Assembly (NCBI GenBank): GCA_039798485.1
Contig: JBDKGB010000027.1
Location: forward strand, 1,240-65,239
Length of the DNA stretch: 64,000 nt
Origin: Bacteroidota bacterium
GTDB lineage: Bacteria > Bacteroidota > Bacteroidia > Flavobacteriales_D > Crocinitomicaceae
Direction: 5' to 3'
Under the pieces are notes generated by a model. The model made no database searches, was not told where the DNA came from, and worked only from the letters and a program-made list of their open reading frames with translations. Each line of letters opens with the position of its first letter. The stretch's first letter is position 1. Both the position numbers and the translations under genes were made by a program. Shown piece by piece: positions 45,273 to 64,000 of the stretch.

Positions 45273-48107
45273 TTAAAGAACGGCAAATTTCAATTGACCA
45301 ATCTTTCCATTTTTCACTGTTTGCAAATAGAAGATTCCACTGCTCACACGGTCAAGTTGAATCATTTGAGTGCTTGACACAATGTTTTCAGCAAGAACAA
45401 CCTTTCCATTCATGTCGTATACTTTTAATACTTGACCAATTTCAAGCCCTGTTACGATAAATTGTCCATTGTTTGGATTTGGAAGGACCTTCACACCGTT
45501 ATAAATGAGATTATCAATGGATGCGCAATCTTCAACAGTAAGCACCAAGGTGTTTGTTCCAATACATCCATTTGCATCTGCATACGTAGCCGTCAACGTT
45601 TGCGCACCTAAGCCAGCAATCGTTGGATCAAAGGATCCACCAGAAACACCAACTCCAGTCACCACAGAATTGGCAGGAGAAACTGTCAACTGAACTGTTC
45701 CATCGCTGATACAAACCGCATTGTTCACTGCTGAACTTGTGATTGTAACCACTGGAAGCGCATTCACGGTAATGTAATTTGTCAACGTTGATGTATTCGA
45801 ACCTGCTGTATTTGTTACCGTGAGGGTTACCGTATACGTTCCAGGAGTTGCATAAACGTGCGAAGGCGACTGATCAGTCGATGTTGTATTGTCACCGAAA
45901 TTCCATGCCCATGTCGTTGGTTGGTTCGCTGAAAGATCATTGAAAGCTACTGGGCTATTGACACAAACAGATGTAGACGCCGTGTTGAATGATGCTGTAG
46001 GTGCCACGGCAGGACCAGCCTCATTGAACATGATTTTAAAATCATCGAAGTAGAATCCATCTCCATTTGTTCCGTTGTCTGATGCCAATTTGAAGCGCAC
46101 TTTAATCACCTGTCCGAGGTAATCACTTAGGTTAATTTCTTCAAGTACCCAGTTGGACTGCACTCCTTCGTACACAGGTTGATTGTTGGGTTGAACACTT
46201 CCATTCGCGTTTGTTCCAGGTACAGTATAGTTTCCGCACTGACCAATCCACGTTGTTCCACCATCCGTAGACACTTGAAACTGAACGTAGTCGTAATCTG
46301 CTTCAATGTTCCATTTTGCATAGTACGAAATCCCTGCTGCCGTTGCATTCGTCAAATCGATTGTCGGCACATACGTATAGGTTTTTGAAGCGATATTGTT
46401 CGCATAGTTTCCTGTTGGACTATCCGTGTACGATGTTGAAGCAGAAACGAAGGTAGACGTTGTTGTTCCCCATGTACCTGTCCAGTTGGCATTTGAACCA
46501 TCTTCCACAACTTGCACTGTCAACGCACCATACGTTTTAACGATGGTATCCTTCTTTACCCACATGCCGTTGTCAGTCTTCAAAATGTACTTGATTTGAT
46601 CACCGTACTGGATTGCAGGATTCAACACATAAGAAATGGCACCAGAAGTATTCGTCATCAAAGGGACATTGTAAACTACAGGAGCACCTACAGATTGAAT
46701 GTTCAACAAGGGCTGAATAGAAACCGTTATAGCTCCATTTTCACGTCCCAAACGCTGCGCTGTATGCGAGAAGTTGCCTGTTAATGTCGCTACCGTTGAC
46801 GGATCAGCATCTTTCACGATTAAGTACTTTCGGCTGATGTGTGCAAGAACTAGGTTCGGGAACAACATGTCCTTGCAGGTAGCATCAATTTCCGAAGCGG
46901 GTTGCCAAAATGCAGTACCTACTTCAGGTGTATGCACAAACATGGTGTCTTTAACGCCTACTCCAATATCCAATTTGTACATGTAGTCATCTGAATCCCC
47001 CGAAGCTGGGTACAAAGCGGAACTTTTCATTGCTGTGTAGCCATTGTACTGTACCATATGATTTGTTTCCGCTTGGAAATAATTGTGGTGGGGAGCAAAT
47101 TCAGCTACAGTTGTTCCAATAGGGAAAAGAATATCTTCCGCATAGGTGTGCGCATTGAACGCTGTAATAAAATGATTGTTCTGCACCAACCAGCGTATTG
47201 CTTGCACTTCAGGCTCGGAATATGCTGCCGTTCCGCAGTAGGTATCGTTGCTTGTATTCGTGCTAGTTCCTGTTGTTCCCCAACCGTAGCCGTAATTTCT
47301 ATTCAAGTCAACACCGTAAACACCACCACCGTTGTTGCGGCGATTCTTGCGCCACATTCCACCACCATTCGGGTTTGTTGATTCGTTGTACAAATACCCG
47401 TCAACATTGATACATGGCACAAAGTAAAGCTGCATGTTGTCAACGATGTATTTTACCTCATCATTCGTAGCGTAGTTTTCCAACAGGTACCACATGTAAA
47501 AAATCGTTTCCATCATGCTCATTGGTTCACGCGCATGGTGAATGGCGGTATAAAGAACTTTCGTCTCTGCACTTTCGTCGGTAGCTGCGTTATCAGAGAT
47601 GCGCACGTAATAAATTGGGCGATTTTCTCGCGACAAAAAGGTAGAAATTGGTGCTTTAGCCGTGATTAAATTTGGGTATAATGTTGCCATTTGATCCAAT
47701 TCGGCAAGCATTTCATTGTATTTCAAGTACCCCCCCATTGTTCCTTGGTTGAAGTTCGTCGGCGTAACAGGACTAAATCCAGAATTCGCACCACCTCCAG
47801 CGCAGCTTGCATTTTTAGGAACGTACCCACTTGGATCAGACATGTGTTCAATGTAATATGCCTGAACATCCTCAATCAAAACCTCATAATTGAAATTGTT
47901 GGCATCCATGATGTCCATTTCCAAATTCGAAAAATCGGAAATAAAGAAGACACCCTCTTTGTAGGTGCCGTGGTCTACCGTAACACCTAAATCACCTAAA
48001 CGCTTCAATTCTAGCGCATCAGCAAATACTTTAACGCGTGAATATGAGGTTTGAGCAAAACTTAAGGTACTTAAAACAGTAAAAAGGAGAGTAATTAGTT
48101 TTTTCAT
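45273..48107 (-). CDS. Secreted M14 zinc carboxypeptidase with a PKD domain and a T9SS type A C-terminal sorting domain
   Basis: Signal peptide MKKLITLLFTVLSTLSFAQ, M14 motif HHAREPMS, PKD segment (WNFGDNTTS...HVYATPGTYTVTLTVTN), and CTD (VLPNPNNGQF...GIFYLQ). Confidence 0.85.
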   Translation of the reverse strand: MKKLITLLFTVLSTLSFAQTSYSRVKVFADALELKRLGDLGVTVDHGTYKEGVFFISDFSNLEMDIMDANNFNYEVLIEDVQAYYIEHMSDPSGYVPKNASCAGGGANSGFSPVTPTNFNQGTMGGYLKYNEMLAELDQMATLYPNLITAKAPISTFLSRENRPIYYVRISDNAATDESAETKVLYTAIHHAREPMSMMETIFYMWYLLENYATNDEVKYIVDNMQLYFVPCINVDGYLYNESTNPNGGGMWRKNRRNNGGGVYGVDLNRNYGYGWGTTGTSTNTSNDTYCGTAAYSEPEVQAIRWLVQNNHFITAFNAHTYAEDILFPIGTTVAEFAPHHNYFQAETNHMVQYNGYTAMKSSALYPASGDSDDYMYKLDIGVGVKDTMFVHTPEVGTAFWQPASEIDATCKDMLFPNLVLAHISRKYLIVKDADPSTVATLTGNFSHTAQRLGRENGAITVSIQPLLNIQSVGAPVVYNVPLMTNTSGAISYVLNPAIQYGDQIKYILKTDNGMWVKKDTIVKTYGALTVQVVEDGSNANWTGTWGTTTSTFVSASTSYTDSPTGNYANNIASKTYTYVPTIDLTNATAAGISYYAKWNIEADYDYVQFQVSTDGGTTWIGQCGNYTVPGTNANGSVQPNNQPVYEGVQSNWVLEEINLSDYLGQVIKVRFKLASDNGTNGDGFYFDDFKIMFNEAGPAVAPTASFNTASTSVCVNSPVAFNDLSANQPTTWAWNFGDNTTSTDQSPSHVYATPGTYTVTLTVTNTAGSNTSTLTNYITVNALPVVTITSSAVNNAVCISDGTVQLTVSPANSVVTGVGVSGGSFDPTIAGLGAQTLTATYADANGCIGTNTLVLTVEDCASIDNLIYNGVKVLPNPNNGQFIVTGLEIGQVLKVYDMNGKVVLAENIVSSTQMIQLDRVSSGIFYLQTVKNGKIGQLKFAVL

Positions 48108-48334
48108 TTCTGGCAAAGTTTGCAGCCAATTTACGGCTTTTTTTTATCCATGCCCTACTTCAATACCATTTCATTTTTCAAAATCGGAAAATATTTTTGA
48201 ACTAATCCTCTAATCATTGAATAATCAGCAGAAACAGATTTTAAGTCAACAAAATCCATGATCCAATTACGGAAAAAACAAGCCTTCAATTTTATCAGCG
48301 GAAAGCATTATTTTTGATAAAAAAAACGGATTGT

Positions 48335-50131
48335 ATGCCTGAAAATAAAATCACCTTTGGAAAAATATTTTGGCCAAGTTTACTCGCCATTTTTATCATG
48401 ACCATCATTGGCTTGTTCTTGTTCATATTAATTGTGGGTGGAATCATCGGAAGTTTTGGTGAATTTGGACCTAAACCACTATCCCTTAAGAACAATACAG
48501 TCTTGCACATGACATTGGACGGTGAAATCGGAGAACAGTCAACAAGCACCTTTGATCCAACATCGTTTAATGTGAACAGAACCATTGGCTTGAGTGATAT
48601 CCTTTTCGGCATTGAAACAGCTAAAAACGACAGCAAGGTGAAAGGAATCTTTTTGGAGGTTGGCGATTTAAATTGTGGCTATGCGAGTACCCGTGAAATC
48701 AGAGAAGCACTCATTGACTTTAAAGAAGCTGGGAAATTTATTGTGGCCTACAATGCCGGGGAAGTCATCACGCAAAAAGAGTTCTACTTAAGTGCTGTAG
48801 CGAATGAACTCTATGCTTTCCCGTCGTCGGCCATGGAGTTTTTTGGACTTGGTGCTGAACTTACCTATTTCAAAAACACCTTGGACAAATTGGATGTAGA
48901 AGTAGAAATCATACGCGGCAGCAACAACGATTTCAAGAGCGCAGTTGAGCCATTTTTCCGAACTGAGATGAGTGATTCAAGCCGTGTGCAAATTGAACGT
49001 TACTTGACATCGATGTGGGAAGACATTCGTATGGACATCTCTAAAGATCGCAATGTTTCCGTTTCGAAGCTGAATGAAATTGCGGAAAAAGCATCCATTC
49101 GCAGAGCAAATGACGCAATTAAGCTGAAGATGATTGATGGTGTGATGTACCGCGATGAAGTCATTGAATTGATTTCCGAGAAAATTGGTTTAGACAAAGA
49201 CGAAGAAATTGAATTTCAAGCTTTTGAGAAATATGCCCGCAAAAAATTCTATTCAGAGCAAGCATTAACAAAAAATGACGACCCAAACATTGCAGTCATT
49301 TTGGCGGAAGGTGATATTTCAACAGATGGCGATGGTTTGACATCCAAAGAAATCTGCAAACTCTTTCAGGACGTACGTAAAAACAGCTCCATCAAAACCG
49401 TTGTTTTCCGGGTAAACAGTCCAGGAGGAAGTGCATTGGCAAGCGACGAAATTTGGCGTGAAGTTGTGCTCACGAATAAGTCGAAGAAGGTTATTGTTTC
49501 GATGGGTGATGTTGCGGCTTCTGGAGGCTATTACATCGCTGCACCAGGCACAACAATCTTTGCTGAACCTACAACCATTACAGGATCCATTGGGGTTTTT
49601 GGAATGATTCCTTACTTAGGAAAGATGCTGGAAAACAAATTGGGAATCACCTTCGACCGTGCTGGAACCAATGCGCACTCAATCATGTCGCTCATGAAAA
49701 AATTGACACCAGACGAGTTGAAAATGATTCAAGAGGAAGTAGACTTCACGTACTTGGAGTTTCTCAACCGTGTTGCGGTTGGAAGAGGTCTTTCTGTAGA
49801 CAACGTGAATGTCATCGCACGAGGTCGTGTTTGGACAGGCCGAGATGCACTTCAAATCGGGCTTGTTGACCGCTTGGGTGGACTGCGCGACGCCATTCAA
49901 TACGCCTCTAAAAAAGCTGGGATAAAAGACAAAAAGGTCCTCTATTATCCGTTGAAAGAAGAAGATATGTGGCAAGAACTACTTGAAGATTTTGAAGAGG
50001 AAAATGGCGACATGGTAATGGCGAAAAATAAATTGCCTGAAGCACTTACAGCATCTTACGAATCATTGCTGCACATGAGCAATCGCTTCGGTATTCAGAT
50101 GCGCTTACCTTACGAAATCACGATCCATTAA
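48335..50131 (+). CDS. sppA: Signal peptide peptidase SppA, 67K type
   Basis: Two ClpP-like S49 domains, including the SMGDVAASGGYYIA serine site. I trimmed the start to the ATG at 48335. Confidence 0.85.
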   Translation: MPENKITFGKIFWPSLLAIFIMTIIGLFLFILIVGGIIGSFGEFGPKPLSLKNNTVLHMTLDGEIGEQSTSTFDPTSFNVNRTIGLSDILFGIETAKNDSKVKGIFLEVGDLNCGYASTREIREALIDFKEAGKFIVAYNAGEVITQKEFYLSAVANELYAFPSSAMEFFGLGAELTYFKNTLDKLDVEVEIIRGSNNDFKSAVEPFFRTEMSDSSRVQIERYLTSMWEDIRMDISKDRNVSVSKLNEIAEKASIRRANDAIKLKMIDGVMYRDEVIELISEKIGLDKDEEIEFQAFEKYARKKFYSEQALTKNDDPNIAVILAEGDISTDGDGLTSKEICKLFQDVRKNSSIKTVVFRVNSPGGSALASDEIWREVVLTNKSKKVIVSMGDVAASGGYYIAAPGTTIFAEPTTITGSIGVFGMIPYLGKMLENKLGITFDRAGTNAHSIMSLMKKLTPDELKMIQEEVDFTYLEFLNRVAVGRGLSVDNVNVIARGRVWTGRDALQIGLVDRLGGLRDAIQYASKKAGIKDKKVLYYPLKEEDMWQELLEDFEEENGDMVMAKNKLPEALTASYESLLHMSNRFGIQMRLPYEITIH

Positions 50132-59730: not shown

Positions 59731-61065
59731 TTATACCGATTTCCGACTTCGCCACCACCGCTTCAGTTTTTTTGATTTCTCCGGGAACAAATACATCAAT
59801 AGCGGAATGGCTATGGAAATGAGTAAAATCCCAACTAAACTGTAAAAAACCCATGCATTCATCCCCGTCCATCGTTGAACCTTTGGCGCTGCATTTACAA
59901 TGGGCAAAACACTCCCAATGGAGGTGAAAATCCCGACAAGTCCAAGTAAGGCATTCGCACGGGATTGTTGTTGTTCGCGAATGGATTCTGATATTCGGGT
60001 GATTCGGTCCTGAAACTGCTTTAATTCCCCATCAATATCCAAACTTGACCGGTGCTTTTGGTACATCAAGTTTGGTAAGAAATTGTAAGAAATATGGCTG
60101 ATGTTGTAGGTATTCAGAAATTCTTCAAACTGGTCCCTCACTTTCACAGAGTCATTGATCATTTCAGAATTGTACCGATATAGATTGAATTTGATTAACA
60201 AGTTGTGCAAGAAAACCCGAAAGTATGATTGCGACCAAGTACGCGTTTTAGCTGTCGTTTTATCCTCATCTAACATTGCGTTGCCAAGCACTGTGAAGGA
60301 ATCAAAAAGTGGAAGTATATCGTAGTTGTTGAAGATAGAGATTTTATTTTCCATCAGCTCCTCAAAATAGGTTTGGCTTGGAGAGAACAACTTTTGGCCA
60401 CCGGCAGAACCTATTTGTGCTCCACATCCAAGATCATACAAGAGTTCAGCGCGCGTATTTTGATCTACAATTTCTTCAAGGTCAATGATTGAAAAAACTT
60501 TAAACTTTGAACCCGAATAATCGTCCACCTTCGGTCCCTTCCTTCCTGTTTCCCCACTAATTGAAATGTCGCACAGCACTTCTTTTTCAATCCAATTCAC
60601 CCAATTGAGTTCTGCGTCAGAACTTAAGACCTTCGTATAGAAATTTCTCACGACAAACGTGAGGTCTGAATAACTGGCTAGCTCCTTCATTTCAATGGAC
60701 AAATCGATCGAGAAAAAATGAAGATTGTTCTTGAATAAAAACACTTCAGCTCCTTCAACACGAACAGAAATGCAGGTTTTTTCTTTCGTTGTCTCGTTTG
60801 TGCGCACAACCAAAACAATGTCATTTTCGAGGTTTTTTGTTAAAATCGTTGCACTGCTTTCTTCTTGGCGTAAGAAATACAAATCGCGAAATTCGGGGTA
60901 CCAGTAATTTTTGAAATAATCCAGTGTTTTTGGATCGTCGATAACTTCTTCCGTGTACTTTTCCTGTTTAAATTTCGAGGCCAGTGTGCGCACACTTCCT
61001 TTCGTTTCAAACACACCCACAATCCGAACAATGGCATTGCGAACTTTTAGAGATGACTTGTCCAT
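59731..61065 (-). CDS. CorA-like membrane protein (large soluble N-domain, coiled coil, TM1-GMN-TM2, basic tail)
   Basis: The C-terminus reads ...ALLGLVGIFTSIGSVLPIV-NAAPKVQRWT-GMN-AWVFYSLVGILLISIAIPLLMYLF-PEKSKKLKRWW. The GMN motif is at aa 401-403 (nt 59857..59865). The N-terminal 370 aa match nothing I recognise. Confidence 0.45.
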   Translation of the reverse strand: MDKSSLKVRNAIVRIVGVFETKGSVRTLASKFKQEKYTEEVIDDPKTLDYFKNYWYPEFRDLYFLRQEESSATILTKNLENDIVLVVRTNETTKEKTCISVRVEGAEVFLFKNNLHFFSIDLSIEMKELASYSDLTFVVRNFYTKVLSSDAELNWVNWIEKEVLCDISISGETGRKGPKVDDYSGSKFKVFSIIDLEEIVDQNTRAELLYDLGCGAQIGSAGGQKLFSPSQTYFEELMENKISIFNNYDILPLFDSFTVLGNAMLDEDKTTAKTRTWSQSYFRVFLHNLLIKFNLYRYNSEMINDSVKVRDQFEEFLNTYNISHISYNFLPNLMYQKHRSSLDIDGELKQFQDRITRISESIREQQQSRANALLGLVGIFTSIGSVLPIVNAAPKVQRWTGMNAWVFYSLVGILLISIAIPLLMYLFPEKSKKLKRWWRSRKSV

Positions 61066-61122
61066 TTAGCAGTTGAATAGGGTACGAAAGTAGGAAATAA
61101 AGTAACAGAAATCTTCATCGGT

Positions 61123-62619
61123 CTAAGCTTCATAAATGGTGGACTTTTCTATGACCACTTTTTTAAACTCCTCAGAAACATTGAATTGGTTGAAAGCTTC
61201 ATCAACAGCCTCGGGCATTAATCCTTTCATGGGGTGCAACAATTCAACTTGAGCCAATTCTTTCATTGACGGGTAGCGATAAAAGCTCTCAGTGCCATCA
61301 TCATCGCAGCGGTAGGTAAAGATCCAGCGAATGTTTTTGGGTGAACGCCAATCCTCTAAAGGCTCCTCGTTTTCATCGTAGGTATAAAACCAATCTGAAA
61401 TTTTCAATTGCGCATAAGCCACTTGCGCCTCATCAAGACCATCAATAATGATGACCAAATTACCCGAAGTATTGTTTTTTTGTAGGTTCAAATGCGATTC
61501 AAGCAGCGATTGAAACAACTGAATCACGTCAAAATACTTGCTTGGTAAACGGTTGAGCTTGCGTTGAATGTGCTCATCAGAACGATTCCAATATTGGCTT
61601 CGATAGCCCTGAAGGATCAGGTGGTACAATGTTGCATGGAGGCTGTTTTGAAGTCCTGCACCACAAAAATGATAGAGCACTTGAGCCTTTGAATCTTGTA
61701 GTGTTCCGATCACATCAGCGATGAGTGCCCCCTTCCCCATTCCGGCTGGAGACTTCACACAAAGCACATTTTTCTCATCCACATTCTGGCAGAATTCAAG
61801 AATGGCTTTCTTTTCTCGTTCACGACCAACAAAGCACGATTGATAATAGGCTATACGCTCGCTATGGTCGAAAACTTGTCCTGCTCCTCCTTGCAGCGAG
61901 GCACGCATAGGTTCAAAAATCGGCTCAAGGTGCGTGTCAGAACATTGAGCATCCTCGTCACCCAACATAAGGTTCAACATTGAAACCTCACCCTTCGACT
62001 TATGTAATCCTTGAAAAATGTATGGATGTTCCTTGTCCTCCCCTTGTTGTAAGAAGGGATGTAGGCACAGGGCGTGTTCATTTTCCTGCCAATAACATTT
62101 GCCATCAATCAATGCGATCTCCCCATTTGAAAACAGTCCCACGAGCTCTGCCATTTCTTCAAACATGAGAATACCATTTGAAAGCTGTTGAAGAAACTCC
62201 GACTTTAATTGAATCTGTTGATGCACGAATTTGTTTCGAAACGTGACAAATCTATCCAGAAGGGATTGCCCTCCTTTGGGTTGAACCATTGGATCTTTCC
62301 AAGCATCTTCTTCAGTACTGATCACCCACAGATTTTTCCAGCTTGTATCTGAAGGCAACGTTTCTCTGAGATTATCAAGTACCTGCTTGGTAAAAAGGGC
62401 GTCACCTTGTCCATCCAATTTTTCAAATTTTCTGCATAGTTGAATGACTGCACCCATCCGCAAAATCATGGTGCTCATTCCGAATGCAGCCATGAAGAAA
62501 TTGTTTAGTCCGGCGTTGTCGTTTTCTATGAGTTCAGACAATAGATCTTGCTCTGCACAAATGTGCTTTTCGTTTTTTAGCGCTATGTACCTTTGGTGGT
62601 ATGTTAGTATCGGCTTCAT
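61123..62619 (-). CDS. Fusion of an RNxxxH (HEPN-like) N-domain and a NACHT-like P-loop NTPase; no sensor repeats
   Basis: FRNKFVH at aa 127-133 (nt ~62221..62238), at the end of a ~130-aa helical region. Walker A is SPAGMGKGAL (aa 290-299), Walker B is LVIIIDGLDEA (aa 388-398), and there is a sensor-1-like IFTYR. The protein ends about 60 aa after that. Confidence 0.55.
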   Translation of the reverse strand: MKPILTYHQRYIALKNEKHICAEQDLLSELIENDNAGLNNFFMAAFGMSTMILRMGAVIQLCRKFEKLDGQGDALFTKQVLDNLRETLPSDTSWKNLWVISTEEDAWKDPMVQPKGGQSLLDRFVTFRNKFVHQQIQLKSEFLQQLSNGILMFEEMAELVGLFSNGEIALIDGKCYWQENEHALCLHPFLQQGEDKEHPYIFQGLHKSKGEVSMLNLMLGDEDAQCSDTHLEPIFEPMRASLQGGAGQVFDHSERIAYYQSCFVGREREKKAILEFCQNVDEKNVLCVKSPAGMGKGALIADVIGTLQDSKAQVLYHFCGAGLQNSLHATLYHLILQGYRSQYWNRSDEHIQRKLNRLPSKYFDVIQLFQSLLESHLNLQKNNTSGNLVIIIDGLDEAQVAYAQLKISDWFYTYDENEEPLEDWRSPKNIRWIFTYRCDDDGTESFYRYPSMKELAQVELLHPMKGLMPEAVDEAFNQFNVSEEFKKVVIEKSTIYEA

Positions 62620-62621
62620 GA

Positions 62622-62780
62622 TTACTTATCGTAATAGCATCTAGCGAGTTTTGCACACGTTGTCGGATGAGCACAACTAGGATTACCTGGTCTTTTACAT
62701 CTAACTCCAGGAGGTGGGCTTACCATTTTTACTGTCTTTGTAAACTTGATTTTCTTGACTGATTTTAACTTTGCTTCCAT
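62622..62780 (-). CDS. Unannotated 52-aa basic, Cys/Pro-rich micro-ORF
   Basis: My codon-by-codon translation is MEAKLKSVKKIKFTKTVKMVSPPPGVRCKRPGNPSCAHPTTCAKLARCYYDK. The ATG at 62780 is 8 nt after the upstream stop (62788), and the TAA at 62624..62622 is 2 nt before the downstream ATG (62619). It is below the ORF-track length cut-off. Confidence 0.45.
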   Translation of the reverse strand: MEAKLKSVKKIKFTKTVKMVSPPPGVRCKRPGNPSCAHPTTCAKLARCYYDK

Positions 62781-62787
62781 GGTTAAA

Positions 62788-64000
62788 CTATTTTATTAAT
62801 ACTTTATGCTGATATTCCAGTTTCACATCACGCCTTCCTAGTGTAAGAAAAATGCGAGAGCTTTCCTCGATTGTTTTTGGGAAGCCATAGAGTTCATCAA
62901 CTTCATCTTGTTTAAACGGTTCTTTACCCAAGGAATAAAATGGACTCAAGATCCCAAAAGCTTCATGCACAAATTCTATCGGGAACCCATGCATATCTGC
63001 GAAACGCCTAGCAACAATCACTTCTTTATTCTCTAACTTGGAATGAATGGCAAAAACAATTTCTTTCAATTTCTCATAATCAGCCACTTGGTCCTTTTGT
63101 TCTTTGCTAGGTCCTTTAAAACGAAGGTAATTCGTTAAAGAGTAATTCACTAGGTCAATCTCTACCTTTGCTTTAGACTTGCCTAATTCAACCTCAGCGT
63201 TGAAAAATCGCTTGAGATAAGGATAATTCCAAGACGTACCAAGCACTGCGACACCTGCCTCAAACAATTCATTGAAGAACAAAGTGAGGTGATTTTCATT
63301 GAACAAAGCTACATGCATGTTGTGGAGTATTACCACAGGCATTTTAGTCATTAGCTTCTGGTTGTCCTTGTTTTTTAGAAATTTAATGGGATCCTTGTGA
63401 GCGTTATCCTTATGAGTATGTTCGAACAACACTTTTCCCAATTCCCTTTCTAAAAAAGAACGTGTGTAGGTTGCACCTTGATCATTCAGCGCATAATGAA
63501 TGGGCAAATACGGACCTTGATCGGCCAATTTCAATAGGGTACGGTAGGCCTGAACACCCACTTCCGATCCAGGATTGTACCAACAGACCAAGGCACCTTT
63601 TCCCTTTTCCAATAGGGACAAAGCAGCTTGTTTCATTTCAGGGATATCTTTGGAGTTTTGACGCGCAAAAGCACCTTCCTCAATTCGGAAACTCTCAGAA
63701 TATTCATGAGAAACACGCTGTGCGAGTTGGCCGAATGATTCACAATTCCTGAGCAACTCCCAAGCACTGGGATCGGTAATGTTCCACTGACCATTGAAGC
63801 CCTGATGATCAATGAAATGGAATTCTCCGAAGGTTTGTTCAAACAATCCAGCTTGTTGGATTTTTTCGAGGATCGCTTCCATCTTGCTTAATTCTTCCCG
63901 ATTTCGTTCGGGCGGCAAGACAAAAAATCCGTGCATCACGGCATTCCGCAAACTGGCCAGGTGGTGTATTTCTTCGTTCAGAACCTCCTTTCCGTCGCAC
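62788..64000 (-). CDS. Paralog of 61123..62619 with an RNxxxH motif and a degenerate (probably inactive) P-loop; 5' end lies outside the window
   Basis: The reading frame stays open to nt 64000 (CDGKEVLNEEIHHLASLRNAVMHGFF...). LRNAVMHG is at nt ~63931..63948. The positions equivalent to Walker A, Walker B and sensor-1 read NPGSEVGVQA, VVILHNMHVA and LGTSW. Confidence 0.5.
   Translation of the reverse strand, partial: CDGKEVLNEEIHHLASLRNAVMHGFFVLPPERNREELSKMEAILEKIQQAGLFEQTFGEFHFIDHQGFNGQWNITDPSAWELLRNCESFGQLAQRVSHEYSESFRIEEGAFARQNSKDIPEMKQAALSLLEKGKGALVCWYNPGSEVGVQAYRTLLKLADQGPYLPIHYALNDQGATYTRSFLERELGKVLFEHTHKDNAHKDPIKFLKNKDNQKLMTKMPVVILHNMHVALFNENHLTLFFNELFEAGVAVLGTSWNYPYLKRFFNAEVELGKSKAKVEIDLVNYSLTNYLRFKGPSKEQKDQVADYEKLKEIVFAIHSKLENKEVIVARRFADMHGFPIEFVHEAFGILSPFYSLGKEPFKQDEVDELYGFPKTIEESSRIFLTLGRRDVKLEYQHKVLIK

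Follow-up and report, generated by a model that had tools for sequence, protein, structure and literature searches.

What is encoded at the end of a 64,000-nt stretch of contig JBDKGB010000027.1 (assembly GCA_039798485.1, a Bacteroidota bacterium of the Crocinitomicaceae), referred to here as the window, where four genes, C, D52, E and F in the order of transcription, are tightly packed between positions 59,731 and 64,000? All coordinates below are positions in the window unless a locus is named, and all four window genes lie on the minus strand. An initial annotation, made from the sequence, had described them as a candidate four-gene defence operon composed of two HEPN- and NACHT-like paralogues, a Cys-rich micro-protein and a CorA-like membrane protein. 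The answer reached here, in which our confidence is slightly better than even, is that the window captures the 3′ portion of a conflict system with three components, A-C-E, resembling the nucleotide-binding leucine-rich repeat receptors (NLRs) and belonging to the STAND NTPases, and that F is an unrelated, often adjacent CorA-like gene. What is unusual about the locus is its split, multi-sensor NLR architecture; the exotic CorA component and the four-gene framing are not upheld.

Composition of the A-C-E core

Altogether 97 loci, designated L001 to L097, came from a single scan of genomes, a single scan of metagenomes and a number of contig look-ups; open reading frames (ORFs) were called and clustered, and profiles were built. 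The scan of genome contigs with a single protein query gave four loci. Among all of them, E was counted in 81 distinct loci, the presence of C beside E could be tested in 75, and 15 were well flanked. C stands beside E in all 75 testable loci, and A is present in each of the 15 well-flanked ones in one or two copies, upstream of C-E in 13 and downstream in two. The invariant core consists of C, E and one or two A proteins.

The exact 498-aa sequence of E was found in four contigs (L001–L004) identical to the window locus. One of them, L002, reaches past the window end and carries the co-directional genes A (1062 aa), B (335 aa), C (510 aa), D52, E (498 aa) and F (444 aa). The four co-directional ORFs in the ORF listing of the window (F, E, D52 and C) and their quoted motifs were located correctly by the initial annotation, as were the gaps of 57 and 2 nt, the third gap, between C and D52, measuring 7 nt and not 8. 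They do not make up a four-gene operon, two further genes, A and B, lying upstream, beyond position 64,000. A chance origin of the reading frames is countered by 475 database relatives for E and 336 for F, and D52 recurs in two other genomes. The combination is not covered by any PADLOC, Pfam or NCBIfam model, in agreement with the annotator's statement that no named system contains it: PADLOC-DB v2 has no system model for C, D52, A or B, E shows weak matches at the level of the P-loop only (PDC-S20, 2e-5; STAND_TPR, 0.01), and F is matched in part by CorA models.

E and A as two predicted halves of one STAND protein

Gene E (61,123–62,619, minus strand) encodes a protein of 498 aa with a helical N-terminal domain carrying RNxxxH, a small beta-rich domain, and a nucleotide-binding domain of the NACHT clade. 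The protein matches Pfam NPHP3_N above the gathering score (4.4e-13; 50.2 bits, cut-off 24.8) as well as AAA_16 (3e-8; 34.7 bits, cut-off 32.6), the matches spanning residues 260–405, while the match to NACHT stays below the cut-off (2e-3; 18.4 bits against 26.7) and that to nSTAND1 is also weak. NPHP3_N is matched by 30 of 30 members of the E family, which bears out the earlier description of a 498-aa STAND/NACHT NTPase; E can be classified, by its profile matches, as a predicted NACHT-clade STAND NTPase. Its Walker A motif, SPAGMGKGA, lies at 61,726–61,752, its Walker B motif, VIIIDGLDE, of the NACHT type hhhhDGhDE with invariant D393, D396 and E397, at 61,429–61,455, and its sensor-1 strand, IRWIFTYR, with invariant R437, at 61,309–61,332. 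In alignments reaching down to 35% identity the invariant positions are R128, N129, H133, G293xGKG297, D393GLDE397 and R437. Both the GxxGxGK Walker A and the hhhhDGLDE Walker B noted initially are present, but the lysine of Walker A is followed by Gly where Ser or Thr is usual; this GKG form is common to the whole split family, the unsplit relatives having GKS, and it suggests nucleotide binding with weak hydrolysis. The AlphaFold2 (AF2) model of E is weak, with a mean predicted local distance difference test score (pLDDT) of 61, and gives only generic Foldseek matches to AAA+ proteins, Apaf-1 and ORC. It is also worth noting that the sequence YHFCGAGxQNSLHA following the P-loop helix (residues ~307–322; window positions 61,650–61,700) is invariant, its Cys included. 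A rhodanese-like match of the HFCGAG loop (active-site loops of 6mxv, E 4e-4) was judged a probable short-motif coincidence.

E ends in LxPLxGLxxEAVxEAF, just short of the GxP motif of helical domain 1. In STAND proteins these are the strand and helix that normally lead into that domain. The missing GxP/winged-helix part, followed by a variable arm, is found in A, a protein of 1062 aa whose gene lies just past window position 64,000 (L002:3790–7985, genes A and B together). A begins with LEPTYLRYIYD and contains GKYQLYHERLKVYLLQK; the invariant residues of its N-terminal domain, A-N, are P6, Y8 and L9 of LEPTYL and H106 within YQLYHERLKVYLL, and LEPTYL aligns with GNPLYL, the GxP motif of the homologue P0442. 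An exhaustive search with the E profile retrieved the single-chain homologues P0374 (1785 aa), P0391, P0380, P0396, P0442 and P0454. In P0374 the E profile covers residues 6–509 (3e-82) and the A-N profile residues 522–692 (8e-42), and the same colinear, adjacent order of E and A-N is seen in the other five. P0442 and P0454 score above the Pfam NACHT gathering threshold, and TPR repeats are carried by the unsplit relatives. Because E and A-N follow one another within a single polypeptide in the unsplit homologues, E and A are read as one STAND protein, apparently cut in two between the nucleotide-binding domain and the GxP/winged-helix part. The best match of A-N among PDB sequences is Apaf-1 residues 362–500, its winged-helix domain and helical domain 2, with a marginal E of 0.028, and the stop codon of E and the start codon of A overlap in L007 and L008. 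Searching a word-indexed database with the A-N alignment yielded no fusions, only fragments of the same family below 470 aa in length.

Beyond the first ~240 residues, which form the A-N domain, the A proteins share nothing: their lengths lie between 526 and 1699 aa, and clustering of the C-terminal sequences gives at least 20 groups. The 1062-aa A has no Pfam repeat match, and among 28 A proteins a few match TPR families and one matches APAF1_C weakly; A, B and D52 gave no match in Pfam, PADLOC or NCBIfam. The remark that the NTPases of the window lack a sensor region finds its explanation outside the window, the winged-helix domain and repeat arm being encoded by A past position 64,000, and their sensor-less look is due to the window edge together with a genuine gene split. 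In several loci (L005:12133–15438, L047:750–4553, L048) a conventional single-chain STAND gene (NPHP3_N and TPR_12, 1101–1267 aa, with a weak Avs2 match) adjoins the split system.

The split might also be an artefact or a sign of decay, E and A being fragments of a pseudogenised STAND gene, C a degenerate duplicate, and nothing in the locus being functional. Unsplit homologues do exist, one E copy (in L097) contains a nonsense codon, and the P-loop of C is eroded. However, the split point is identical in the 81 distinct loci over identities of 33–100%, E and A each begin and end with proper start and stop codons, the motifs to either side of the split do not vary, A paralogues multiply independently of E, and C keeps its RNxxMHGFF and C-terminal motifs invariant despite the loss of its P-loop. 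Since the split point is constant, the codons intact and the motifs invariant, and since A multiplies independently and the motifs of C are conserved, long-term purifying selection on the split form is indicated, and the decay explanation is very improbable.

Protein C and the RNxxxH heads

Gene C (62,788–64,000, minus strand) has its 5′ end beyond the window, which contains the codons for the C-terminal 403 of its 510 aa; the translation of 62,788–63,999 gives 403 aa without a start codon, and the full length was taken from the identical contigs L001–L004. The protein consists of an N-terminal helical domain with RNxxMHGFF, a P-loop NTPase domain in which both Walker A and Walker B are eroded, and a C-terminal LGRRDxKLEYQHK tail. 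Its decayed Walker A region, LEKGKGALVCWYNPGSEV (63,559–63,612, minus strand), aligns with KSSKGAVHIGGGLGSGKSAAW of a C homologue in L091, a locus in which an unsplit E-A gene is followed by a gene for this 542-aa homologue (3e-81). Where C of the window reads YNPGSEV and VVILHNM, the L091 protein has GGGLGSGKS and VVVLLDD, so that the initial view of a protein with LRNAVMHG and a decayed P-loop is strengthened by a relative intact at the aligned positions. The Walker lysine is lost in 49 of 49 distinct C proteins of the split system, all of which keep RNxxMHGFF and LGRRDxKLEYQHK. C is accordingly described here as a predicted inactivated NTPase of the same layout as E and its putative obligate partner. 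It matches no Pfam family above threshold and nothing in PADLOC. The two proteins had been called paralogues; this could not be demonstrated, BLASTP and hhalign comparisons, full-length and per domain, being non-significant (probability 1–7%). The weak C-E alignments are all colinear, though not significant. As far as their predicted domains go, C and E share an architecture, and paralogy is not claimed.

The RNxxxH motif of E, RNKFVH (R128–H133), lies at 62,221–62,238 and that of C, RNAVMH (Rx4H, residues 125–130 of the full protein), at 63,931–63,948, both on the minus strand. The motif is invariant as R128-N-x3-H133 in 30 diverse E members and as R125-N-x3-H130 in 29 C members, M129 of C being invariant as well. 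Over this region C matches Pfam HEPN_LA2681 below threshold (2e-3), and the same model matches nine of the 29 C members, at best with 7.8e-5 and with about 18–22 bits against a cut-off of 27. Eight of the 30 E members match RiboL-PSP, HepT, Apea or Swt1 HEPN models, all of them sub-threshold, and one E homologue is annotated as DUF86 in one source. The proposal of HEPN RNase heads was correct as to an invariant RNxxxH in the N-terminal helical domain of both proteins, while the HEPN profile matches all stay sub-threshold; from this motif and these recurrent sub-threshold matches we take the heads to be HEPN-like. HEPN RNases such as Cas13, Csm6/Csx1 and HepT are said, after the 2013 work of Anantharaman and co-workers, to need two Rx4-6H motifs per active site. 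C and E, always co-encoded and each with an invariant RNxxxH, resemble such two-motif enzymes and would fit a composite site; unlike the established HEPN RNases, they have only sub-threshold profile matches.

Proposed mechanism

Homology establishes an anatomy that, at the level of sequence, comprises a NACHT-clade NTPase apparently split into E and A, a constant partner C with a putatively dead NTPase, invariant RNxxxH heads, and hypervariable arms present in several copies. STAND and NLR receptors are thought to work through a mutual lock of the nucleotide-binding and winged-helix domains within one chain. At rest, E would bind the winged-helix domain of A in trans, and this contact would stand in for the lock that ordinary STAND proteins have within the chain. 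The repeat arm of A would then bind a ligand, for which a phage protein is the most plausible candidate, and the lock would be freed, allowing nucleotide-dependent oligomerisation of E with C. The two RNxxxH heads would then join into a composite HEPN-type RNase site, RNA would be cut, and the infected cell would be arrested (abortive infection or growth arrest). With one or two A paralogues bearing unrelated arms, one C/E engine could serve several sensors. The fullest form of this proposal, offered tentatively and held to be possible at most, is a combinatorial modular NLR, in which active E and dead C, with half of a HEPN RNase site on each, form a heteromer to which interchangeable, horizontally swapped A sensors dock in trans, and in which the engine may also signal to the CorA-like or envelope module.

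Several observations weigh against a defence system of this composition. As regards the heads, no Pfam HEPN model reaches its gathering score for C or E, profile searches of the PDB with the N-terminal domains of E and C found nothing, and the AF2 model of E is helical at residues 3–163 with a pLDDT of only 45–75 around RNxxxH. The GKG P-loop of E is a further point, since with Gly at this place E may be able to bind nucleotide but not to hydrolyse it. C and E show a degree of conservation that is unusual in defence proteins, with 62–82% identity to the query in the top 120 E clusters; no relatives of E were found in the viral contigs, plasmids or phages searched; and the same chromosomal neighbours are kept over wide divergence, which would fit a housekeeping role too. 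The exclusion of F is opposed by L009, where two A genes, C, four small genes, E, F and a DUF4407/OmpA/DUF350 cluster form one co-directional array of 18 genes with gaps from E onward of no more than 25 nt or overlaps, by the start of F 57 nt past E in the window and 10 nt past E in L009, and by an A-type gene at the edge of L095, ~9 kb from F. The assignment of the heads to HEPN by structure was abandoned in view of the poor AF2 model of E, the generic Foldseek matches and the empty PDB profile searches, the whole-chain Foldseek search of the E model being dominated by the NTPase domain.

Gene F and the envelope-type neighbourhood

Gene F (59,731–61,065, minus strand) encodes a CorA-fold-like protein of 444 aa with two C-terminal transmembrane helices (TM1 and TM2). 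Its AF2 model (pLDDT 82) has a cytoplasmic alpha/beta domain, a long stalk helix and the two C-terminal helices, and the top Foldseek matches in the PDB are to Thermotoga maritima CorA, with an E of 1.6e-3 at best and a template modelling score of only 0.17–0.24. PADLOC CorA models derived from type III CRISPR systems match F at 4.5e-10 (PDLC01174) and 1e-7 over residues ~256–423, the C-terminal third only, and there is no Pfam match, the CorA family included. Of the TM1-GMN-TM2 ending described initially, the two helices and the GMN between them, in the loop before TM2, are present, and the fold is predicted to be CorA-like, but GMN as such occurs only in the window copy: among 46 aligned F sequences the positions hold G in 12, M in 2 and N in 22.

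A CorA membrane effector activated by SAM-AMP is known from type III-B CRISPR systems (Chi et al. 2023, PMC10600005), where it is an established defence component. F resembles it in the PADLOC matches, in the CorA structures ranking first and in the two transmembrane helices that follow a long stalk. It differs in its unrelated N-terminal domain, in the lack of a Pfam CorA match, in the unconserved GMN, and in its own set of partners, Septknot, a 173-aa protein and a DUF481-like 266-aa protein, with no cas10 or signal synthase in the examined loci; the gene lists of the fetched loci contain no cas10, cas or nucleotide-synthase Pfam family. By analogy with the type III CorA effector, genes A-B-C-D52-E-F could be regarded as one defence operon in which F, as the membrane effector, would form a pore or an ion leak that opens in response to the activated STAND/HEPN complex or to the RNA fragments it produces. 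The position of F directly behind E and on the same strand, the tightly packed array of L009, the PADLOC matches and the A gene near F in L095 speak for such an operon, as does the presence of F or its cluster less than 10 kb from E in six of the 15 well-flanked loci. F is, however, absent from the other nine, and it lies on the opposite strand in L006, L010, L018, L077, L081 and L084. In L093–L095 it belongs to an operon of its own, Septknot-F-173 aa-266 aa (DUF481-like), which is conserved, has no C or E within 10 kb, and adjoins a cluster of DUF4407, a 331-aa protein, OmpA, a 552-aa protein, DUF350 and 4HBT. In L096, F (58% identity) and the DUF350 gene (69%) are kept while A-C-E is reduced to remnants. 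The CorA models, moreover, match the C-terminal third only, and the locus has no signal-generating enzyme. A single six-gene operon with F as its effector is for these reasons considered rather unlikely.

In the preferred three-component reading, F is most likely no core component but a conserved neighbour that comes from an envelope-type gene cluster of its own; the exotic look of the cluster in the window was due to this CorA-like gene, a probable bystander. The four-gene unit first proposed does not survive the comparison of loci: F belongs to a separate operon and persists in L096, where the system has decayed, D52 is confined to three genomes, and the combination is not conserved as a unit. 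The view that F and A-C-E never co-occur at a distance was revised on account of the A-type gene at the edge of L095.

The envelope-type neighbourhood itself recurs, with A-C-E beside or inside it, at L002:2–2621, L009:11502–21077, L093:393–12644 and L095:1330–12644. One part of it consists of DUF4407, a ~331-aa protein, an OmpA-like protein, a membrane protein of 550–575 aa and DUF350, in some cases followed by a 4HBT thioesterase, and the other of Septknot, the CorA-like F, the 173-aa protein and the DUF481-like 266-aa protein. Inspection by eye shows a transglutaminase-like Cys/His core at the C-terminus of the 550–575-aa membrane protein. In L002 an OmpA-like gene, a gene for a 575-aa membrane protein and a DUF350 gene lie upstream of A; in the window, ruvC and other ordinary genes lie downstream of F.

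Turnover of the cassette

In L002 the GC content is 0.299 for A and 0.325 for B, compared with 0.425 for C, 0.429 for E and 0.45 for the flanks, a difference suggesting that import or exchange of the sensor genes was recent and independent of the C/E engine. Within the window the cluster had seemed AT-richer than its surroundings; at a GC of 0.414 against 0.427 for the rest of the window it falls at the 15th percentile among equal-sized windows, a difference that is not significant. A decayed copy is preserved in L096 (L096:3742–8957), where all that is left between DUF350 and F is 27 codons from the start of A and 96 from the end of E. The cassette is replaced there by an AAA_14/DUF4143 ATPase gene, a gene for a 196-aa protein and one for a 1320-aa TPR protein with a YRNGLAHG (Rx4H) motif of its own, and a tyrosine integrase gene lies just beyond F. 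In L097 (L097:7292–8785), which also contains the third copy of D52, E has an in-frame stop right after Walker A (GMGKGA*), indicating either a pseudogene or a sequencing error. The decay in L096, the stop in L097 and the low GC of A and B represent turnover of a cargo cassette between conserved flanks. The neighbours of A-C-E loci include AbiEii, a caspase-like protease, WYL and other STAND genes.

These features also bear on the possibility that A-C-E is a resident regulatory or housekeeping STAND switch of a freshwater Bacteroidota lineage, controlling, for example, envelope or stress genes of the adjacent DUF4407/OmpA/transglutaminase-like/DUF350/CorA-like cluster, with RNxxxH heads that act on specific cellular RNAs or are no nucleases. 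The high conservation of C and E would agree with such a switch, as would the lack of relatives in the searched viral contigs, plasmids and phages, a result that also led to the rejection of a mobile-element origin, and the linkage to the same envelope-type genes across E identities of 46–100%; non-defence STAND clades are also common, 391 of 589 (PMC13581612). It is opposed by the hypervariable arms of A and their several copies, the foreign-looking GC of 0.30–0.33 of A and B, the polymorphism of presence, absence and pseudogenes at one locus, the variable inserts in the slots between genes, the match of unsplit relatives to Avs1b, and the integrase and Abi-type genes among the neighbours. 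The housekeeping explanation is thus unlikely, and the architecture and genomic context of A-C-E point instead to a putative defence function.

Relation to known systems

The Avs and bNACHT proteins are the closest known kind; the order of parts in A-C-E is like theirs, with the predicted effector head at the N-terminus, the NACHT-clade NTPase and the winged-helix domain next, and a long, putatively TPR-like sensor arm at the end. Avs proteins were reportedly described as antiviral STAND NTPases by Gao and co-workers in 2022. The unsplit relative P0442 is similar to them in matching PADLOC Avs1b at 4.6e-13 and in passing the Pfam NACHT threshold, whereas E, C and A themselves have no match among the PADLOC Avs models. 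In contrast to both Avs and bNACHT proteins, the chain is cut into E and A in A-C-E, with one or two alternative A subunits per locus; there is an obligate C of the same layout with a dead P-loop; and Walker A is GKG and not GK[ST]. For bNACHT proteins, HEPN is among the listed effector types (Lee et al. 2026, PMC13581612; Kibby et al., bioRxiv 10.1101/2022.07.19.500537).

For the C/E pair the closest concept is the nSTAND2 two-gene system, with adjacent active and inactive STAND-type genes in both, for which a hetero-oligomer was predicted, one gene having eroded NTP-binding motifs and HEPN being a frequent effector (Kaur, Iyer, Burroughs & Aravind 2021, PMC8195603, Fig. 6C). The nSTAND2 system belongs to an MNS-like clade and encodes a STAND protein with a winged helix-turn-helix (wHTH) domain, followed by nSTAND2 with a wHTH domain, TPRs and HEPN, the latter being C-terminal and confined to the inactive partner (PMC8195603). 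Unlike it, A-C-E has an N-terminal RNxxxH head on both partners, an NPHP3_N/NACHT-like E, and the wHTH domain and repeats on a third protein. Split STAND proteins receive only a brief mention, in a methods section of PMC13581612, and a search of the open-access literature gave no description of the A-C-E family, of the way it is split, of the pseudo-NTPase partner or of the several sensor subunits.

By keeping the two halves of the lock on separate proteins in 81 distinct loci, A-C-E provides a natural experiment on the STAND lock. If the sensors are interchangeable, bacteria would have a cheap route to diversifying pattern recognition, and a modular scaffold for receptor engineering would be at hand. 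If the modular reading is correct, the range of recognition would grow by the addition of a sensor gene and not by duplication of a whole receptor, and the system would be a prokaryotic counterpart of sensor/helper NLR networks, arrived at through a split at the boundary between the nucleotide-binding and winged-helix domains.

Accessory genes and base composition

Gene D52 (62,622–62,780, minus strand) encodes a basic micro-protein of 52 aa with four Cys and occupies the slot between C and E. Homologues are found in L012 (73% identity) and L097 (71%), all four Cys being kept, and the proportions of synonymous and non-synonymous differences (pS 0.80 against pN 0.16) indicate purifying selection, so that the basic Cys-rich micro-ORF proposed at the outset is a real gene. 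C and E are directly adjacent, without D52, in 66 of 82 C-E pairs, and in the others a variable small gene lies between them. The slot may contain D52, FtsK-gamma-like winged-helix proteins of 151–153 aa (e.g., L006:9515–9970) or others: in L009 (L009:7607–10004) an FtsK-gamma-like protein, an AAA+/AAA_lid_6 ATPase and other small proteins; in L010 (L010:8880–9998) an FtsK-gamma-like protein, with an AAA+/AAA_lid_6 ATPase gene ~10 kb upstream on the opposite strand; and in L079 an 857-aa gene.

Gene B is present in seven distinct E-centred genomes (nine loci when duplicates of the window's genome are counted). It lies at L002:6978–7985 and occurs also in L010, L012, L018, L023 and L085; its products, of 235–335 aa, have the conserved motifs LILGSFPV, ISISD and SIPSPGSP, and the copy of the window's genome has an extra Cys-rich tail of ~100 aa. 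The motifs appear to resemble those of family-6-type uracil/hypoxanthine-DNA glycosylases. With a marginal match of B to PDB 2l3f (E 0.14), a uracil-DNA glycosylase (UDG)-like identity is kept as a lead only. B, possibly UDG-like, and D52 are lineage-restricted accessories.

A promoter and terminator scan of the sequence gave a number of sites not above that in shuffled sequence; the sigma-70 consensus used in it does not apply to Bacteroidota. A dip in GC content to 0.377–0.380, the lowest within the profiled 40–64 kb of the window, is located at 47,500–49,000 and is unrelated to A-C-E.

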